Assembly: GCA_009392915.1 (NCBI GenBank)
Contig: CP045477.1
Span: 64,001-128,000, forward strand
Reading direction: 5' to 3'
Length of the DNA stretch: 64,000 nt
Source: Candidatus Forterrea multitransposorum CG_2015-17_Forterrea_25_41
Lineage (GTDB): Archaea > Iainarchaeota > Iainarchaeia > Iainarchaeales > CSSED10-239
Shown: piece by piece, positions 9,304 to 15,535 of the stretch
Layout of the letters: every line of letters starts with the position of its first letter
Numbering within the stretch: position 1 is the stretch's first letter
Position numbers and translations under genes: made by a program
The notes under the pieces: generated by a model
What the model was told of the DNA's origin: nothing
Database searches by the model: none
What the model saw: only the letters and a program-made list of their open reading frames with translations

Positions 9304-9846
9304 ATGTTAACTTTTTTTAAAAAAATTAAAAGAGATTTGAAAACTAAAAAAAAAATAAAAGAATCTCTTTATTTTTTATTATTTTTTATAATTTCTTTTT
9401 CTCTTATTTATTTATTATTATCAAAAACCTTAATCTATAATTTTATAAACTATTTTTATGGTTCTCTTTCAAGTATTATTCTTAATATTTTTTATGGAAT
9501 TAATACTTCTTTTTATTATGATTTTATAGAACAAGTAACTTTTCTAATAATTCCAAGTATAGATTATCCTGTTGCAATTGTTTTCTTATGTACTGGTATT
9601 TTAGAATTTTCTTTAATTGTAAGTGCTATTGTTTCAACTATTGGTTTTTCTTTAAGAAAGAAAATAAAATGGGTATTAATTTCTTCTTTCCTTGTAATTA
9701 TTTTTAATCTTTTAAGAATAACTTTTACAATATTTATAATAGATTATTTTAATTTAGAAATAGCAGATTTTTTCCATGGTTTTTTATTTAGATTATTTTT
9801 AGTAATTATTGTTATTGGTACTTATTATTTTTTCTTAAAATCTTAA
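9304..9846 (+). CDS. exosortase/archaeosortase family protein (small form)
   Basis: 180-aa polytopic membrane protein with the family Cys/Arg/His pattern: VFLCTGILE (Cys), IFNLLRITF (NxxR), FFHGFLF (His). Confidence 0.65.
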   Translation: MLTFFKKIKRDLKTKKKIKESLYFLLFFIISFSLIYLLLSKTLIYNFINYFYGSLSSIILNIFYGINTSFYYDFIEQVTFLIIPSIDYPVAIVFLCTGILEFSLIVSAIVSTIGFSLRKKIKWVLISSFLVIIFNLLRITFTIFIIDYFNLEIADFFHGFLFRLFLVIIVIGTYYFFLKS

Positions 9847-9850
9847 ATTA

Positions 9851-10162
9851 TTATTTTTTAGGACCTTTCTTAATTTTTGGTTTTCTTTTTTTACAAGCTT
9901 CATTTTGAATAACAATTTCTTTTGTTAATTTATCATTCTTTCTTTGAAGACTTGCAATCTCACATAAAATAATTTCAGCAAATTCTTTATTTCCTTTATT
10001 TGATCTAATCATGTCTTTACAGTATTCTATGTTAATGTTATTAAGTTCAATTTTTTCAGAATTAGAAATTGTACCTACTCTATTTTTTTCTTGCAATTGA
10101 TTTTTTCTTTTTGCAATTGGTGATGATGAATGATTCCATTTTTGATTTAATTCAGTAGTCAT
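9851..10162 (-). CDS. hypothetical basic protein
   Basis: 103-aa ORF whose start overlaps the upstream gene's stop by 4 nt (ATGA), so the two are likely translationally coupled. Lys-rich C-terminus. Confidence 0.5.
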   Translation of the reverse strand: MTTELNQKWNHSSSPIAKRKNQLQEKNRVGTISNSEKIELNNINIEYCKDMIRSNKGNKEFAEIILCEIASLQRKNDKLTKEIVIQNEACKKRKPKIKKGPKK

Positions 10163-10551
10163 TTTTGCATCTCTTCTTTAATGATTTTTTTCACTTGTTC
10201 AATAGTTGTATACTCTAAAGGATTAATATTATCAATTACATATTTCATTTCTTTTAAATCTTCAGCTCTTGCATATCTTTTTGAAAACATCTCAAGATTT
10301 GATTCAATCCCTTTCATTCTGTTTTCAATATCTTTCATTTTTTTAAAAATTTCTTCAATTTTTTCATTAGATGCAAAAGAGCCTTGTGAATCTGAAGTAT
10401 TGGCTGAAGCAATCTTTTTATTTAAAACAAGGATGTTTCTTCCAAGTATCTTTTCATTATGCACAAGATATTTTATCTTTTGTCTTAAAACAAGAAGACT
10501 TGATTGTAAAGCTTTAATATCTTGATACACATTCTGTGATTGATCAACCAT
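10159..10551 (-). CDS. hypothetical coiled-coil protein
   Basis: 130-aa ORF with heptad-like charged/hydrophobic periodicity. First gene of a two-gene minus-strand unit. Confidence 0.5.
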   Translation of the reverse strand: MVDQSQNVYQDIKALQSSLLVLRQKIKYLVHNEKILGRNILVLNKKIASANTSDSQGSFASNEKIEEIFKKMKDIENRMKGIESNLEMFSKRYARAEDLKEMKYVIDNINPLEYTTIEQVKKIIKEEMQK

Positions 10552-10745
10552 AGTTAGTTCTTCTCTTTTGTAAATATTTTATATATTTATATAGTAATAG
10601 ATAATATTTAAAGATGTTTGTTTTATTTTTAAAGATTTCTTTTTTTAAATTAACTTATAATAATTTAGTTCAGTTATTAAATTAAATACCTTTATAAACT
10701 ATTTGTCTCATAAATATATAAAAATAAATGAGGTGTTAAAAGGAT

Positions 10746-11102
10746 ATGAATAAAAAAATATTAAATATTTTTGGAGTACTTTCTGTTTTAGTTTTTTTAA
10801 TGTTTATTTCATTAAACTTAAGTGCAGAGAGATTTGATGTTACTGATATTTCTTACTCTTATGTAAGTTATAATTATCCATATTACCCAAATGGTCAATA
10901 TTATAATAGTTACTATAATTATTATGATTATTATATTCCAACAGGTTATGTAAATTCATATACAGGCTATATTAATTATCCTGCTTACTCAAATTATGTT
11001 CCAACTTACTATAACACTTCATATGTAACTTATCCTTCATACTATAACAACTCAATCAGTTATGGAAGTCCAGAGGCATATGTTTCTTTTAGTTGGCAAT
11101 AA
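10746..11102 (+). CDS. secreted tyrosine/asparagine-rich low-complexity protein
   Basis: Sec-type signal peptide (MNKKILNIFGVLSVLVFLMFISLNLSA). The mature region has about 28 Tyr in about 90 residues by hand count. GAGGTG SD. Confidence 0.7.
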   Translation: MNKKILNIFGVLSVLVFLMFISLNLSAERFDVTDISYSYVSYNYPYYPNGQYYNSYYNYYDYYIPTGYVNSYTGYINYPAYSNYVPTYYNTSYVTYPSYYNNSISYGSPEAYVSFSWQ

Positions 11103-11129
11103 ATAAAAAAGAGGATTTAAAGATTTATT

Positions 11130-14100
11130 ATGAACTATAAATATTTTTTTGTATTTTTATTAGTAGTTTTATTTTCATCAATGGTATTTTCATACACAAT
11201 TGGTTTTGATTATGCTGAAGTTAGAACTACAAGTTATCCTAACTATCTTAATTATCAATATGCTCATTACTATGATAATATTGATCTAAGATATGGTGTT
11301 TATGGAAGTGGAATTTCTTCTCCAGTAACAATAATTGTTTCTCCAAAAGTTTATGGAATAACAACTACTGGTCAAAGAGTCTTTGTTCATAATATACAAA
11401 CTCATTCTTTTTCAATGAATCCTTCTTCTTTTTATACTTATAGTTATAATCCAATGTTTTCTTTTGATCCTGCATATCAAAGTTATGAAGTTGTTTTAGA
11501 TCTTCAAAGTTCAGATGGATCTTTTAATAATTCTGTAAGTAGATATGTTTATTCTCAAGGAACAAATCCAAACCCTGGAGGAGATGATCCTACAGGTGAT
11601 GATCCTAATGTAGTTAGTTGTGATGATTTTTATGTTTCAGGAATGGAAGATATTTATTTAGATGAAGATTCAAGAGAATATTATAATCTTTATTTAGTAA
11701 ATTCTGTTGACTTGCCACTTACAATAACTTCAGTTACAGTTTCTCCAAATAATCCTACTAACTTAGAAATTGAAGATATTACTTATCCTTTTACAGTTTC
11801 TGCTCTTCAAACAAGAAGTGCACAAATTGAACTTTTTACAGATACAGTTTCTTCTGATTATTCAAATAGTTTTCAAATAGAAGTTAAAGGTAAATATGAT
11901 AATTCTTTAACTTGTGAAAAAACATATAATGTTAATTATAGAATACTAGATGCTGAACTTGAAAATAATGGTTCTTGTAGTGATATAAGAATTTTAGATG
12001 ATTATTTTACAATGAGTGATAATTCTTCTAAAACTTTTGAAATTGAAGTTTCAAATGCTTCTCAAGATTATTATTTTGAAGTTGATGATATTGATTTAGA
12101 TACTACAAATGATTCAATAATTGAAGCTAGTGTTAGAAACACAATTGATAAAATATATACAGATTCTTCTAAAATTTTAAAAATAAATGTTTCTTCAGAT
12201 GACACTTCTTTTTATAGAACTGAAAAAATTGATTTAGAACTAACAGGTTATTTAAAAAGAGAAAACAGAGAAGATAAAAAATGTAGAATAAGAGAAGATG
12301 TTTCAATAAGAGTTTCTCCAGATTCTTCAACTGGAAATACTTCAAATGAATGTGATGATATAAAAATATATACAAGAGATGTTTTCCAAGATTCTCAAAT
12401 AACAGAAAACTACTCTCTTCAAGAGGGTTTTTATATTTATAATGGAACTAATAAAAAATTTACTGTATCAGGTATTAACTATAAAGACAATACTATGTAT
12501 GCAGATATCTTTTCAAAATCTTTTGATTATACTCTTTATCCTAGATCCTCTAATGCTTTAAATTTTGATATAAGAACAAGTGAAGTTTCAGAAAATAAAC
12601 TTTCAAATGCAGAAATTTCTATTCAAGGATATTTTGAAGGTGGACTTTCTTGTAGTTATTCAGATATAACTTCAAACTTTAATTTAACTATAAGAGAAGA
12701 AAATGATTTTTGTTCAAATGTAGGTATTTATGATGACAGTTTTGTTGAAGGTGAAAATTATTTTACAGTTTATAATAACACTAATAAAGACTTTACTGTA
12801 AATGATATTATTTCTCAAAATTCAGTTAACTCAAATGTAGGTGTGATTGATTCTTCTTTTAAAGTTTTAAAAGATTCACAAAAAACTTTTAGAGTTGGTT
12901 CTTCAGGAAATGGTAGTTTTGAGCTTTTAGCTAAAGGTGTTTTTTCAGATGGCACTTCTTGTGACTATACTCAAACAAGCAGTGGTTATTTCAATAGTGA
13001 TTCTGGTTATGATTTTTCAGATACTTCTTGTGAATTTGAATTTAATTATCCAAATGTAAAATATATCTCTTTAAACGGAGACTCTCTAAATTTTGATTTT
13101 AGAAACTTAACTGGAAAATCTGGTGAGATTAGACTTTCTGCAGTTGGTGCTGTAATTGAAGATCCAATTATTAAGTTTTCTTCATATTCATCTTTTAATA
13201 AAGAAATAGATCTTTTAAATATTAAAAATCCAAAAATGGTTCTTTATACAATTGAAATTTACGGTTGTTCTAAAAAATCATATTTTACAAATCTTTATCC
13301 TTTAGGAAATTCTATTCAAGGAGATGTTTCATTTTTAACATATCCTAGTAATTTAATTTCAACTAAAGATAAATTTATAAGTTCTTTTTCACTTAAAAAC
13401 TCAAGTAGTTTTTCAGAAGATGTTGAAATTAAATTTTCAGGTTTTACAAGTGCATTTAATTTTGTATCTTCTCCTTATCCATTAAACCCAAATACTTTCT
13501 CATCTTCAGATAATGTTTCAACAGTTACAATAAATCCAAACTCTACAAAAAATATTTATTTTGGAGTTGATGTTTTAGAAAATGCAGAATATAAAAAATA
13601 TAATGGATATATTGAAGTTTATAGTAATAATAAATTATTATTTAAAGAGCCTTTATCAATAGATAGATCAATTACTACTAATAATTTATTAGTAAATACT
13701 ATGGTTGAAAAGACATCTGTTAAAAATACTGTTCTTTTAACATTTACTTTTGAAAACAAATTACCTGACCTTACAAGAGAACTTTATTTATCTTTTGAAG
13801 ACGAGAATAGTTTTGAAGTAGATGGTAATAGAAATATATCTGTTGCACCATTAAGTGTACTTGAAAGAAGCTTTACTGTTAAATATAATGAAGGTTCTTT
13901 ATTTAAGTATAATTTAATAGATACAGATAATTCTTCTCTTGCATATTCTGGAGAAGTAGATTTAAAAGAAATTGATAATTCTTCAAATCTTTTATCTGGA
14001 TTTTTTACTCTTTCAGATACAAAAGGATTTATATTTGCAATTGTTCTTATATTACTTATAGCTTTAATTATTTTCTTAATAGTTTATGGAGATAAATCTA

Positions 14101-14273
14101 GAGCTAAAAGAAAACAAGAAACTAAATCAGTTTTAGAAACACAAGAAAAAATAAAAGAAGAAATTAGAAAAGATAATTTTTCTAATATTACTAAGTCTGA
14201 GATTATAATAGGAAATAAGCCTATTATAAAGCCTGCAGAACCAAGACAGATTACTTTAGGTGAGCTTGATTAA
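11130..14273 (+). CDS. large surface protein (1047 aa): signal peptide, five Cys-bracketed modules, TM anchor, charged tail
   Basis: N-terminal signal peptide. Repeat modules of about 110-125 aa each begin and end with a Cys (aa ~164-713). TM segment GFIFAIVLILLIALIIFLIV followed by an ~80-aa K/E-rich tail. Confidence 0.8.
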   Translation: MNYKYFFVFLLVVLFSSMVFSYTIGFDYAEVRTTSYPNYLNYQYAHYYDNIDLRYGVYGSGISSPVTIIVSPKVYGITTTGQRVFVHNIQTHSFSMNPSSFYTYSYNPMFSFDPAYQSYEVVLDLQSSDGSFNNSVSRYVYSQGTNPNPGGDDPTGDDPNVVSCDDFYVSGMEDIYLDEDSREYYNLYLVNSVDLPLTITSVTVSPNNPTNLEIEDITYPFTVSALQTRSAQIELFTDTVSSDYSNSFQIEVKGKYDNSLTCEKTYNVNYRILDAELENNGSCSDIRILDDYFTMSDNSSKTFEIEVSNASQDYYFEVDDIDLDTTNDSIIEASVRNTIDKIYTDSSKILKINVSSDDTSFYRTEKIDLELTGYLKRENREDKKCRIREDVSIRVSPDSSTGNTSNECDDIKIYTRDVFQDSQITENYSLQEGFYIYNGTNKKFTVSGINYKDNTMYADIFSKSFDYTLYPRSSNALNFDIRTSEVSENKLSNAEISIQGYFEGGLSCSYSDITSNFNLTIREENDFCSNVGIYDDSFVEGENYFTVYNNTNKDFTVNDIISQNSVNSNVGVIDSSFKVLKDSQKTFRVGSSGNGSFELLAKGVFSDGTSCDYTQTSSGYFNSDSGYDFSDTSCEFEFNYPNVKYISLNGDSLNFDFRNLTGKSGEIRLSAVGAVIEDPIIKFSSYSSFNKEIDLLNIKNPKMVLYTIEIYGCSKKSYFTNLYPLGNSIQGDVSFLTYPSNLISTKDKFISSFSLKNSSSFSEDVEIKFSGFTSAFNFVSSPYPLNPNTFSSSDNVSTVTINPNSTKNIYFGVDVLENAEYKKYNGYIEVYSNNKLLFKEPLSIDRSITTNNLLVNTMVEKTSVKNTVLLTFTFENKLPDLTRELYLSFEDENSFEVDGNRNISVAPLSVLERSFTVKYNEGSLFKYNLIDTDNSSLAYSGEVDLKEIDNSSNLLSGFFTLSDTKGFIFAIVLILLIALIIFLIVYGDKSRAKRKQETKSVLETQEKIKEEIRKDNFSNITKSEIIIGNKPIIKPAEPRQITLGELD

Positions 14274-14349
14274 GTTTTTCTTAGAGGGAAATAACAAACC
14301 ATTTATAAAGTTTTCTGTTCAAAGATTATTATATAATGAAGAATTAATG

Positions 14350-14436
14350 AAGCTTTGTAGACTGTGTGTTAACATAGACAGTTATTAACCATTTTTTTCA
14401 AAAATTTGGTTAACATATAAATGCAAAGCTTTTTTT
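14350..14436 (+). other. structured intergenic element (10-bp closing stem, two internal hairpins, T7 tract)
   Basis: AAGCTTTGTA (14350-14359) pairs with TGCAAAGCTT (14422-14431). Inner hairpins are ACTGT/ACAGT (14361-14382) and TTAACCA/TGGTTAA (14385-14413). A T-run at 14430-14436 follows. Confidence 0.3.
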
Positions 14437-14551
14437 AAAATAATGATTGTTTTTTAATTTTTTTTAAAAAACATTTGTAAAGTTTAAAAATTGTTTTATA
14501 TAAAAAAAAGTGTAATTTATTTTGTGTAAAAAATATTAATGTGTAACATAT

Positions 14552-15535
14552 ATGCCAAAAAAATATAAACCTAGAGCTGGATCTATGGCTTTTTACCCAA
14601 GAGTAAGAGCAAGATCTATAATCCCTAAATTTAATTCTTATAATGGACTTGAAAAAGATGAGTCTGTGTGTAAACCAATTGCTTATTATGGTCTTAAGGT
14701 TGGAATGATGCAAGCAACTGCAAAGAATGCTCATAAAAACACTTCCTCTTATGGTCATGAAGTTGTTTTGCCAGTTACAGTAATTGAGACTCCTGATTTA
14801 AAAGTTTCAGGTGCAAGGCTTTATAAAAATAAAAAACCTATAACTGGAAAAGAAGCTGTTTCTGAATTTTTAAAATTTGATAATCTTCTTTTAAAAAAAA
14901 TTAAAGGAAAGAAATCAAATGATAAAAAAGAATTAGATGTTTTCTTAAAACAAACTGAGAAAGCAGATGATCTTGTTCTTTTATGTTATATTGATACTAA
15001 ACAAACAACAATTGGTCAAAAAAAACCAGTTCTTGTTGAAATTCCTTTGTCTGGAAAGTTTGAAGACAAAATATCTTATTTTAAAGAAAAATTTACTAAA
15101 ACATTACCTATTTCTGAAGTTTTTGATGTTGATACTGATTTAGATGTTAAATCAATATCTAAAGGTCACGGATTTACTGGTCCTGTAAAAAGATTTGGTA
15201 TTAAAATACAAAGACCTAAAGCACAACAAATCCAAAGACACGTTGGTTCTATTGGTCCATGGCATCCTGCTACAATTATGCACACAGTTCCAAGAGCTGG
15301 TCAACATGGTTTCCATAACAGAGTTGCTTATATGAAAAAACTTTTAATGATTGGTAGTGATTTAGAAAAAGTAAATCCTAAGGCTGGATTTAAAAAATAT
15401 GGTGTTGTTAAAAACAACTATATTTTAGTTTCAGGAAACGTTCCTGGTGTTACAAAAAGAGTTGTAGCTCTTAGAAAATCTACAAGAAAACCAAGATCTA
15501 AATTGACTGTCACAGATGTGAATATAATTAATTAA
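14552..15535 (+). CDS. rpl3: 50S ribosomal protein L3 (uL3)
   Basis: PRAGSMAFYPRVRA..., GHGFTGPVKRFG, archaeal uL3 length. First gene of the large r-protein cluster. Confidence 0.95.
   Translation: MPKKYKPRAGSMAFYPRVRARSIIPKFNSYNGLEKDESVCKPIAYYGLKVGMMQATAKNAHKNTSSYGHEVVLPVTVIETPDLKVSGARLYKNKKPITGKEAVSEFLKFDNLLLKKIKGKKSNDKKELDVFLKQTEKADDLVLLCYIDTKQTTIGQKKPVLVEIPLSGKFEDKISYFKEKFTKTLPISEVFDVDTDLDVKSISKGHGFTGPVKRFGIKIQRPKAQQIQRHVGSIGPWHPATIMHTVPRAGQHGFHNRVAYMKKLLMIGSDLEKVNPKAGFKKYGVVKNNYILVSGNVPGVTKRVVALRKSTRKPRSKLTVTDVNIIN

Follow-up and report, generated by a model that had tools for sequence, protein, structure and literature searches.

In Bacillus subtilis, CotC and CotU are small, very tyrosine (Tyr)-rich proteins that serve as structural parts of a proteinaceous surface layer and reach higher-order assembly with partners (PMC7944565). 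The current work concerns an archaeal gene at 10746..11102 (plus strand) of a 64,000-nucleotide (nt) stretch of contig CP045477.1 from Candidatus Forterrea multitransposorum (Iainarchaeota), the whole of which is called the window here; it encodes a Tyr-rich secreted protein of 118 amino acids (aa) and is followed by the gene of a 1047-aa surface protein (11130..14273, plus strand). CotC and CotU differ from this small protein in being bacterial, made in the mother-cell cytoplasm and devoid of a signal peptide; oxidative cross-linking has been proposed for them, and scans of Pfam and NCBIfam found no sequence similarity. Both are also rich in Lys and Asp. The mussel foot proteins Mfp-3 and Mfp-5, and other Lys/Tyr- or Tyr/Gly-rich adhesives, are likewise small, secreted and disordered, contain 20-30% Tyr and act in cohesion and adhesion (PMC11132505). 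They are, however, eukaryotic, strongly cationic and dependent on conversion of Tyr to 3,4-dihydroxyphenylalanine (DOPA), whereas the archaeal protein is acidic and carries terminal and central motifs. A similar composition, in which Tyr is combined with Ser, Asn and Gly and with few charges, is found in the FUS-type or prion-like [S/G/N]Y[S/G/N] domains; these are also predicted to be disordered, and in them too it is the share of Tyr that is kept, and not the sequence or the length. FUS-type domains are intracellular, eukaryotic and much longer and act in condensates, whereas the protein described here is extracellular, contains Pro and is flanked by motifs.

With respect to gene organization, the surface layers (S-layers) of archaea offer the nearest comparison. 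SlaA and SlaB of the Sulfolobales are two secreted envelope proteins encoded side by side, only one of which has the C-terminal membrane anchor (PMC6098224). In that pair the small SlaB is the anchored stalk and the large SlaA the canopy, whereas here the large protein is anchored and the small one is not; SlaB, moreover, has a fold of coiled coil and beta structure, unlike the Tyr-rich chain of low complexity, and no homology exists. The S-layer glycoprotein of Haloferax volcanii, processed by ArtA at a PGF-CTERM signal, resembles the 1047-aa partner in its export by the general secretory (Sec) route, its multiple immunoglobulin (Ig)-like domains, its tripartite C-terminal signal and the proximity of an archaeosortase-family gene (PMC6098224). 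The two differ in the motif, which is PGF in Haloferax and L[ST][GA]F[FL] here, and in the approximately 45 residues that follow the basic cluster in the lineage of the window. We know of no small Tyr-rich partner in haloarchaea. By analogy, the small protein would stand closest to the Tyr-rich structural and adhesive low-complexity proteins in its working and to the two-component S-layers in its gene organization. It is a member of none of these systems, because it matches no family model, its charge is opposite to that of the mussel proteins, its signal peptide sets it apart from CotC, and the anchor lies on the large subunit, unlike the arrangement in SlaA and SlaB.

The open reading frame (ORF) of the small protein extends from ATG to TAA. 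Tyr makes up 28 of its 118 residues (23.7%) and 28 of the 91 residues (30.8%) of the mature part if cleavage after LSA27 is assumed, in agreement with the initial annotation, which had been made from the sequence alone and had estimated about 28 Tyr in about 90 mature residues. The mean Tyr content of window ORFs of at least 150 aa is 4.4%, and the runner-up among those of at least 100 aa reaches 8.6%. For a chain of 118 residues, the binomial probability of 28 or more Tyr amounts to 2e-13 at the Tyr frequency of the proteome, the comparison that had been proposed at the outset, and 1e-8 at the 7.1% Tyr expected of random codons with the same base composition. The window has a GC content of 25.3%. 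Nevertheless, AT bias fails to explain the composition because Lys, Ile and Phe, residues with AT-rich codons, are not enriched: Lys makes up 10.4% of the proteome and is missing from the mature protein, which has 4 Ile and 2 Phe where the proteome values are 9.3% and 5.3%, respectively. The same argument had been put forward in the initial annotation, and the counts bear it out.

Several independent features mark this ORF as a gene. The locus is identical to part of a 663,598-bp metagenome contig of the Joint Genome Institute (JGI), on which a 118-aa gene has been called at this position. Against the 92%-identical orthologue (L007), the ratio of nonsynonymous to synonymous substitutions (dN/dS) of the small gene is 0.042/0.296 = 0.14, and that of the large gene is 0.16; between the two small proteins one Tyr has been lost and one gained, so that the total stays at 28. 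No competing ORF overlaps 10746..11102 on either strand. Among two-fold degenerate codons for Tyr, Asn, Phe, His and Asp, the share ending in C is 20.4% in the small gene and 19.0% in the ribosomal-protein block, whereas the remaining window genes reach only 7.1% (p=0.002) and the large gene lies in between with 10.8%. From its promoter, its ribosome-binding site (RBS) and this ribosomal-protein-like codon usage, the small gene is probably highly expressed.

One might still suspect a frame that stays open by chance in DNA rich in AT and TAT: the genome GC is 25%, a short microsatellite-like TAT-rich stretch lies at 10899-10935, and one look-up failed to find the exact 118-aa sequence among 15 billion proteins. 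Yet the identical gene is called on the JGI contig, and this absence is taken as a database gap. The comparative data refute a spurious origin and leave it virtually impossible: a gene call exists on the source contig, its homologues are 42-92% identical and share invariant motifs, dN/dS is 0.14, promoter and RBS are conserved, codon bias is that of ribosomal-protein genes, and no rival frame exists. A lack of homologues and of expression evidence together with poor RBS or codon-usage support had been named beforehand as the sign of a spurious ORF; homologues, RBS, promoter and codon support are all present. Judged by these comparisons, the ORF is a genuine gene under purifying selection, and we are highly confident that its product is indeed secreted and shares an operon with the surface protein.

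Relatives of the small protein were sought, as had been recommended, and were found at 42-92% identity in at least 14 lineages, all of them Iainarchaeota/Diapherotrites-like DPANN archaea. A search of 5.8 billion proteins yielded five homologues, none with a Pfam domain or a name. An exhaustive hidden Markov model (HMM) search of 1.84 billion cluster representatives yielded seven clusters that truly belong to the family and no other convincing match, and further loci were added by genome and metagenome scans. Two weak HMM matches, P0011 and P0013, turned out to be repeat proteins of the Ig/cadherin type and were set aside as spurious. The small protein matched no family in Pfam-A at E<=0.1 and none in NCBIfam, and a profile search of the PDB sequences returned nothing at E<=10. 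As far as these collections extend, the family is unannotated, tiny and restricted to one lineage.

Members of the family are 112-145 aa long and share one plan. Tyr accounts for 26-33% of the mature protein in all 15 members, despite mature lengths that range from 87 to 120 aa. Lys and Arg together number 1-4 per member, Cys is absent from all 15 sequences, and the isoelectric point (pI) is mostly 4-5, with two members at 6.0 and 8.7. The spacers between the conserved motifs consist of Tyr, Ser, Asn, Thr, Pro and Gly; their length and sequence vary among members and their composition remains constant. In the Tyr-rich part, seven to eleven Pro residues are scattered, the spacing from one Tyr to the next is broad (1-4 residues), and no repeat periodicity is present. 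One spacer, in L002, has been enlarged by a 45-nt tandem repeat in about three copies. The initial annotation had proposed glycosylation of an envelope component as one possibility. Sequons for N-glycosylation number 0-3 per member and are missing entirely from 5 of the 15, and in the ectodomain of the large protein they occur at chance level (19 observed, 18.5 expected); N-glycosylation as a conserved feature was thus rejected. The homologue P0001 (145 aa) has a 27-residue C-terminal extension past ...FSWQ that is missing from the near-identical L018 copy, and a stop-codon error on a short contig probably accounts for it.

The small protein begins with a Sec-type signal peptide (10746..10826, plus strand), recognized by inspection of the sequence, which has the n-region MNKK, an h-region of 19 aa and the c-region NLSA, with a predicted cut at A27|E28. 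Signal peptides throughout the family have a basic n-region and an h-region of 13-19 residues (13-18 outside the window). Position -1 is Ala in the 15 members except for Phe in one, and position -3 is Val, Ile or Leu. By these features the protein is of the Sec-exported type with a signal peptide cleavable by signal peptidase I. Other modes of export or anchoring were considered. The protein ends in ...VSFSWQ, with neither a hydrophobic stretch nor basic residues, and does not resemble an archaeosortase or exosortase substrate; with zero Cys in any member there is no lipobox of an archaeal lipoprotein; and the hydrophobic segment precedes an AxA-like site, followed by a polar and acidic mature start (ERFDVTD), which does not agree with a class III signal of the type IV pilin or archaellin kind. 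The mature polypeptide has about 10.9 kDa and a pI of about 4, and lacks Lys, Cys and any membrane anchor; if the signal peptide is cleaved, it would be a soluble extracellular polypeptide.

Three conserved motifs are found in the mature protein. The N-terminal one (RFDVTDISYSYVSYNYPYYPN, 10830..10892, plus strand) contains FDVTDISYSYV and corresponds to a family consensus directly after the signal peptide, [KRDEN][FL][DE][VI]T[DE]ISYSYV.Y.YP.YP; across 11-15 sequences no variation is seen at T33, Y37, S38, P45 or Y47, and hardly any at F30, D31, D34 and Y39. The central motif, GYVNSYTGY (10944..10970, plus strand), corresponds to GY[IV][NSD]PYTG[YM], mostly GY[IV]NPYTG[YM], in the family, with Y72 and G74 invariant, and is probably a beta-turn. 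The third (NSISYGSPEAYVSFSWQ, 11049..11099, plus strand) closes the protein, with the consensus [IV]SY..P...[VIL].F[ST]W plus one residue, in which W117 is invariant and N102 and F115 are nearly invariant. AlphaFold2 (AF2), run with an 11-sequence alignment, gave no confident fold: the mean predicted local distance difference test (pLDDT) score was 53.6, with values below 50 for residues 37-100. Residues 3-23 were modelled as a helix, and the only strand structure was a C-terminal beta-hairpin (103-108/111-116; pLDDT about 59). From this model the Tyr-rich spacers are probably disordered.

The initial annotation had remarked that the mature N-terminus of the large protein (SYPNYLNYQYAHYY) has a similar flavour. 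The likeness holds for composition and fails for homology. Alignment of the small protein with the N-domain of the large one by hhalign gave a probability of 0.1% and an E-value of 0.61 over 6 aligned columns, and the HMM of the N-terminal motif scored at best <=1.1 bit against the large protein N-terminus, at inconsistent positions. Paralogy of the two was therefore rejected.

The arrangement of the two genes was studied by aligning upstream regions across loci, a scan for sigma-70 promoters and hairpin terminators being inapplicable to an archaeon. A block of 42 nt (10668..10709, plus strand) precedes the small gene and comprises AATACC, similar to a B-recognition element (BRE), a TATA box (TTTATAAA, 10691-10698) and a conserved initially transcribed segment (CTATTTGTCTC); it is called a promoter on the basis of the archaeal BRE/TATA consensus. 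Even between loci with proteins no more than about 50% identical, this block before the small gene hardly changes, and a closely similar element (AAACCATTTATAAA) precedes the rpL3 ribosomal-protein operon downstream. A Shine-Dalgarno-like GAGGTG (10730..10735, plus strand) lies 10 nt before the ATG, and GAGGTG, GAGGGG or GGAGG occurs at the equivalent position in 8 loci. Between the two genes is a gap of 27 nt (11103..11129, plus strand), the distance first reported, which contains a weak RBS (AGAGGA) and neither a T-run nor a TATA box. The gap measures 20-62 nt in every locus read that reaches downstream, across at least 14 lineages that include those of the most divergent family members, P0009, P0010 and P0012.

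The relatives that lack the small gene are informative about the operon. In L022, L023 and L025, whose large gene is 34% identical and which contain no Tyr-rich ORF within 3 kb, the promoter block (ACCTTTATAAACAATTTGGCTCATAT) lies about 63 nt before the large gene; in the clade that has the small gene, the block precedes that gene by about 55 nt. Because the same promoter fronts the large gene where the small gene is missing, the small gene appears as the first cistron of an operon. Co-transcription with 11130-14273, which had been marked for checking, is probable from the shared promoter and the gaps of 20-62 nt. Fusion of the two ORFs by read-through was rejected: they share a frame in the window with two stops in between, and the gaps of the relatives are not multiples of 3. 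In L005 a copy of TTTATAAA is also present in the intercistronic gap.

The partner gene (11130..14273, plus strand) encodes, in order, a signal peptide, an N-domain, beta-sandwiches, the motif LSGFF, a transmembrane helix, a basic cluster and a tail of about 45 aa. The N-domain (about 22-160) is strongly conserved, contains 12-22% Tyr and is modelled by AF2 at pLDDT below 55. About seven beta-sandwich domains follow (165-945; pLDDT about 80), for which Foldseek returned only generic Ig-like/MG/ASH domain arrays. Ten Cys (164, 262, 283, 385, 408, 508, 528, 611, 634 and 713) do not vary among the homologues, a pattern suggestive of a single disulfide bond in each beta-sandwich repeat. The pI of the ectodomain is 4.3.

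The C-terminus of the large protein (14000-14273) consists of L[ST][GA]F[FL], a transmembrane helix and a basic cluster. A tripartite signal of the archaeosortase type is composed of a motif, a transmembrane helix and basic residues, and ArtA can process an internal signal (PMC6098224). Relatives (L022, L024, L027, L028 and L015) end right after an RRR/RRK cluster, for example ...SPLSGFLTLGNAGLIILGLIILVVLVIIFRRR, which gives the signal its canonical form, and in the lineage of the window about 45 further residues follow. No curated CTERM model in NCBIfam, PGF-CTERM included, matches this signal; the L[ST][GA]F[FL] sorting signal is apparently undescribed. At 0.9 kb upstream of the pair, and syntenic in relatives, lies the gene of an exosortase/archaeosortase-family protein of 180 aa (9304..9846, plus strand; TIGR04178, E 1.1e-11, 44.9 bits against a cut-off of 23), in which Cys96 (CTG), Arg138 (NLLR) and His158 are present. 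By these sequence criteria the large protein is very probably an archaeosortase-processed surface protein and a candidate for the S-layer, and the archaeosortase-family protein is its likely processing enzyme; with regard to the small protein, this enzyme is context only.

Some relatives of the large protein have no counterpart of the small one, or an altered one. L015, a lineage of 39% GC whose large protein is 22% identical, has as the upstream neighbour (1059-1613) a 184-aa signal-peptide protein with 65 Tyr (35%) that is rich in Asp and Glu. It holds the central motif in the form GYRNPYT, for which it uses its sole Asn (shuffle p of about 0.0017, for a pattern chosen slightly post hoc). 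Its HMM score is no better than that of 2000 composition-preserving shuffles, and homology to the family was rejected on this count; a search of a large database with this protein returned nothing. Apart from the central motif it cannot be aligned to the family, and it is regarded as an analogue in position and composition and possibly a remote homologue. In either case, the presence of such a Tyr-rich partner at 39% GC shows that the trait is selected and not a by-product of AT bias.

On the basis of these data a tentative scheme can be drawn for the pair. The small protein, as first cistron of a two-gene envelope operon, would be exported by Sec and lose its signal peptide. Its three motifs, namely the N-terminal strand, the NPYTG turn and the C-terminal hairpin ending in FSW, would be parted by disordered Tyr/Ser/Asn/Pro spacers and would dock, probably by edge beta-strand augmentation, onto the archaeosortase-anchored surface protein with its multiple beta-sandwiches, which would keep the small protein in the envelope. 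The Tyr-rich spacers could then act as multivalent aromatic stickers through pi-pi and OH-pi interactions, hydrogen bonds and possibly CH-pi contacts with glycans, and join neighbouring molecules of the surface protein non-covalently, in the manner of mortar. Outside the motifs, selection would favour a chain that is rich in Tyr, uncharged and interrupted by Pro. That the signal is cut off, that the protein stays in the envelope and binds the large one, and that it acts as cement are inferred; on the preferred though tentative reading, the small protein would be an abundant, largely disordered envelope cement or surface-protein partner whose cohesion is supplied by Tyr stickers, a kind of protein not yet described in archaea. 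Operon linkage, the BRE/TATA promoter and the ribosomal-like codon bias make it a candidate component of an S-layer or envelope lattice. Of the initial proposal of an envelope matrix or glue, the general idea stands as the most reasonable reading, solely through the genomic context; the part that invoked glycosylation or cross-linking lacks support.

A number of observations weigh against the cement scheme. No retention mechanism is visible in the sequence, so that release into the medium or a tether formed by an uncleaved signal would be possible. The small gene is absent within +-3 kb in two branches of the large protein (L022-25 and L024/27/28), and the family of the large protein could thus do without it, provided that no copy lies elsewhere in those genomes; Tyr amounts to 15-22% of the N-domain in relatives without the small gene and 12-16% in those with it. 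In L029 (1111-1281) the large homologue that follows the divergent small protein P0012 shows a signal peptide and then the first beta-sandwich (DVSCSDITLSGKTEIYVDED...) before the contig ends after 57 codons; it seems to lack the N-domain of about 140 aa while the small gene is kept, and the N-domain is thus unlikely to be an obligatory docking site. In six of the eight loci compared (L008, L001, L005, L009, L002 and L011; not the window and L007), a run of five to seven T directly follows the stop codon of the small gene, within the first 10-25 nt. Such runs could act as partial archaeal terminators, raise the small transcript above the large one in abundance and thereby set the ratio of the two, in which case strict co-expression would not be guaranteed. 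Literature searches, finally, found no relevant Tyr-rich protein of archaea, DPANN or S-layers, and no expression data for Iainarchaeota.

Other functions can be imagined for a polypeptide of this kind. A Tyr content of about 30% in a small extracellular protein is a hallmark of covalently cross-linked matrices, in which Tyr is oxidized to dityrosine or to DOPA and quinone links and an insoluble, hardened coat results; CotC and CotU form assemblies of high mass for which peroxidase-made dityrosine is proposed (PMC7944565), and the Lys/Tyr-rich low-complexity domains of mussels rely on modification of Tyr (PMC11132505). Chemistry of this type is quite unlikely here, since no peroxidase, laccase or tyrosinase gene is present in the neighbourhood in the window or in the related loci that were read, neither Lys nor Cys is available as a partner for quinones, and the contigs of 0.66-0.84 Mb together with lake- and groundwater-type sources hint at an anaerobic lifestyle. 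A free or loosely bound adhesin, aimed at a host cell, glycans, mineral or other surfaces, deserves somewhat more attention. In that case a mini beta-scaffold would display two long Tyr/Ser/Asn-rich loops comparable to the Tyr/Ser-rich complementarity-determining regions (CDRs) of antibodies. Three conserved motifs do enclose two variable Tyr-rich segments, the length and sequence of the spacers change fast between lineages, and the small gene is kept in L029, where the large protein seems to have no N-domain. An adhesin would also suit the episymbiotic life of many DPANN archaea and the fact that no residue is more versatile in binding than Tyr. Strict operon linkage to the surface protein is, however, better explained by a common structure; AF2 gives no confident scaffold, a dN/dS of 0.14 shows no diversifying selection, and the symbiont status of Iainarchaeota is itself unsettled. 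An adhesin is accordingly an unlikely explanation.

Two further alternatives concern the physical state of the small protein. Composition rich in Asn, Ser and Tyr and poor in charges is typical of amyloid-forming and LARKS-type (low-complexity aromatic-rich kinked) segments, and both the C-terminal VSFSW and the N-terminal strands alternate hydrophobic and polar residues. A subunit of a functional amyloid or fibre might therefore be considered, in which cross-beta filaments similar to curli or archaeal sheaths are anchored or nucleated by the large protein. The seven to eleven scattered Pro residues, the lack of periodicity at a Tyr-Tyr spacing of 1-4, the absence of a beta-solenoid from the AF2 model and the lack of any relative in Pfam, NCBIfam or the PDB make this highly improbable. 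The problem of retention would be solved if the signal peptide were not cleaved and acted as a signal anchor, with the Tyr-rich chain filling the space between the membrane and a canopy of the large protein; the long h-region of 19 aa and the single AF2 helix at 3-23 would be in accord with such a membrane-tethered spacer. It is nonetheless very doubtful, since Ala at -1 and Val, Ile or Leu at -3, followed by the invariant N-terminal motif, fit signal peptidase I, and the h-regions of other members span only 13-18 aa. 

The surroundings of the pair are conserved as well. Upstream lie, in order, genes for a Hef/ERCC4 nuclease, CGI-121, ribosomal protein S8e and the archaeosortase-family protein, followed by one or two small coiled-coil genes on the opposite strand; downstream is the rpL3-L4-L23-L2 operon. 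In the window the coiled-coil proteins are encoded on the minus strand at 10159-10551 (130 aa) and 9851-10162 (103 aa), divergent from the Tyr-rich gene. The 130-aa protein (QNVYQDIKALQSSLLVLRQK.KYLVHNEKILGRNIL) gave no above-threshold family match in Pfam or NCBIfam; it is strongly conserved, and its gene keeps its place in every relative, even where the Tyr-rich gene is missing. An Rfam scan of 10300-14700 produced a single sub-threshold chance match. The leader of rpL3, between the TATA box at 14302 and the ATG at 14552, contains an element of about 82 nt (14350-14431; AAGCTTTGTAGACTGTGTGTTAAC ... GGTTAACATATAAATGCAAAGCTT) that is highly conserved across 7 loci. RNAalifold predicted for it a long-range helix of 21 pairs, of which 3 show compensatory changes, and no Rfam match was found; it is a candidate for a lineage-specific autoregulatory leader of ribosomal proteins.

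Mobile elements adjoin the locus in two relatives. In L033 (1-2472) a diversity-generating retroelement, with bAvd and a reverse transcriptase, is adjacent; adenines are the positions at which its template repeat (1080-1200) and variable repeat (4-123) differ. The latter is part of another gene, one that runs off the contig, and targeting of the Tyr-rich gene was rejected. In L013 (1-468), too, a reverse-transcriptase gene is found beside the locus.

The combination of an archaeosortase, a Tyr-rich protein and a surface protein with the L[ST][GA]F[FL] motif can serve as an annotation marker for this operon. If the proposed role is true, the small protein would also be a compact natural Tyr-rich polypeptide of 91 residues, free of Lys and Cys, and of interest for biomaterials. 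A bolder, and rather unlikely, extension would be a two-component Iainarchaeota envelope in which an abundant, disordered subunit with about 30% Tyr is the aromatic mortar, or a cell-cell attachment module with CDR-like Tyr loops; this would be the first archaeal class of Tyr-rich low-complexity structural or adhesive proteins and an extracellular counterpart of the intrinsically disordered regions with Tyr stickers in eukaryotes, of a depth of conservation at which the 22%-identical operon of L015 still has an analogue with 35% Tyr. The envelopes of DPANN archaea are almost unknown in molecular terms, yet they decide the survival and attachment of these ultra-small cells. Located directly upstream of the main ribosomal-protein operon and provided with a promoter of the consensus type, the pair stands out as the leading candidate for the main proteins of the Iainarchaeota envelope. 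Should the cement role be true, selection would have acted on composition, at about 30% Tyr, over sequence, and cohesion by aromatic stickers would be a new principle of the archaeal envelope.

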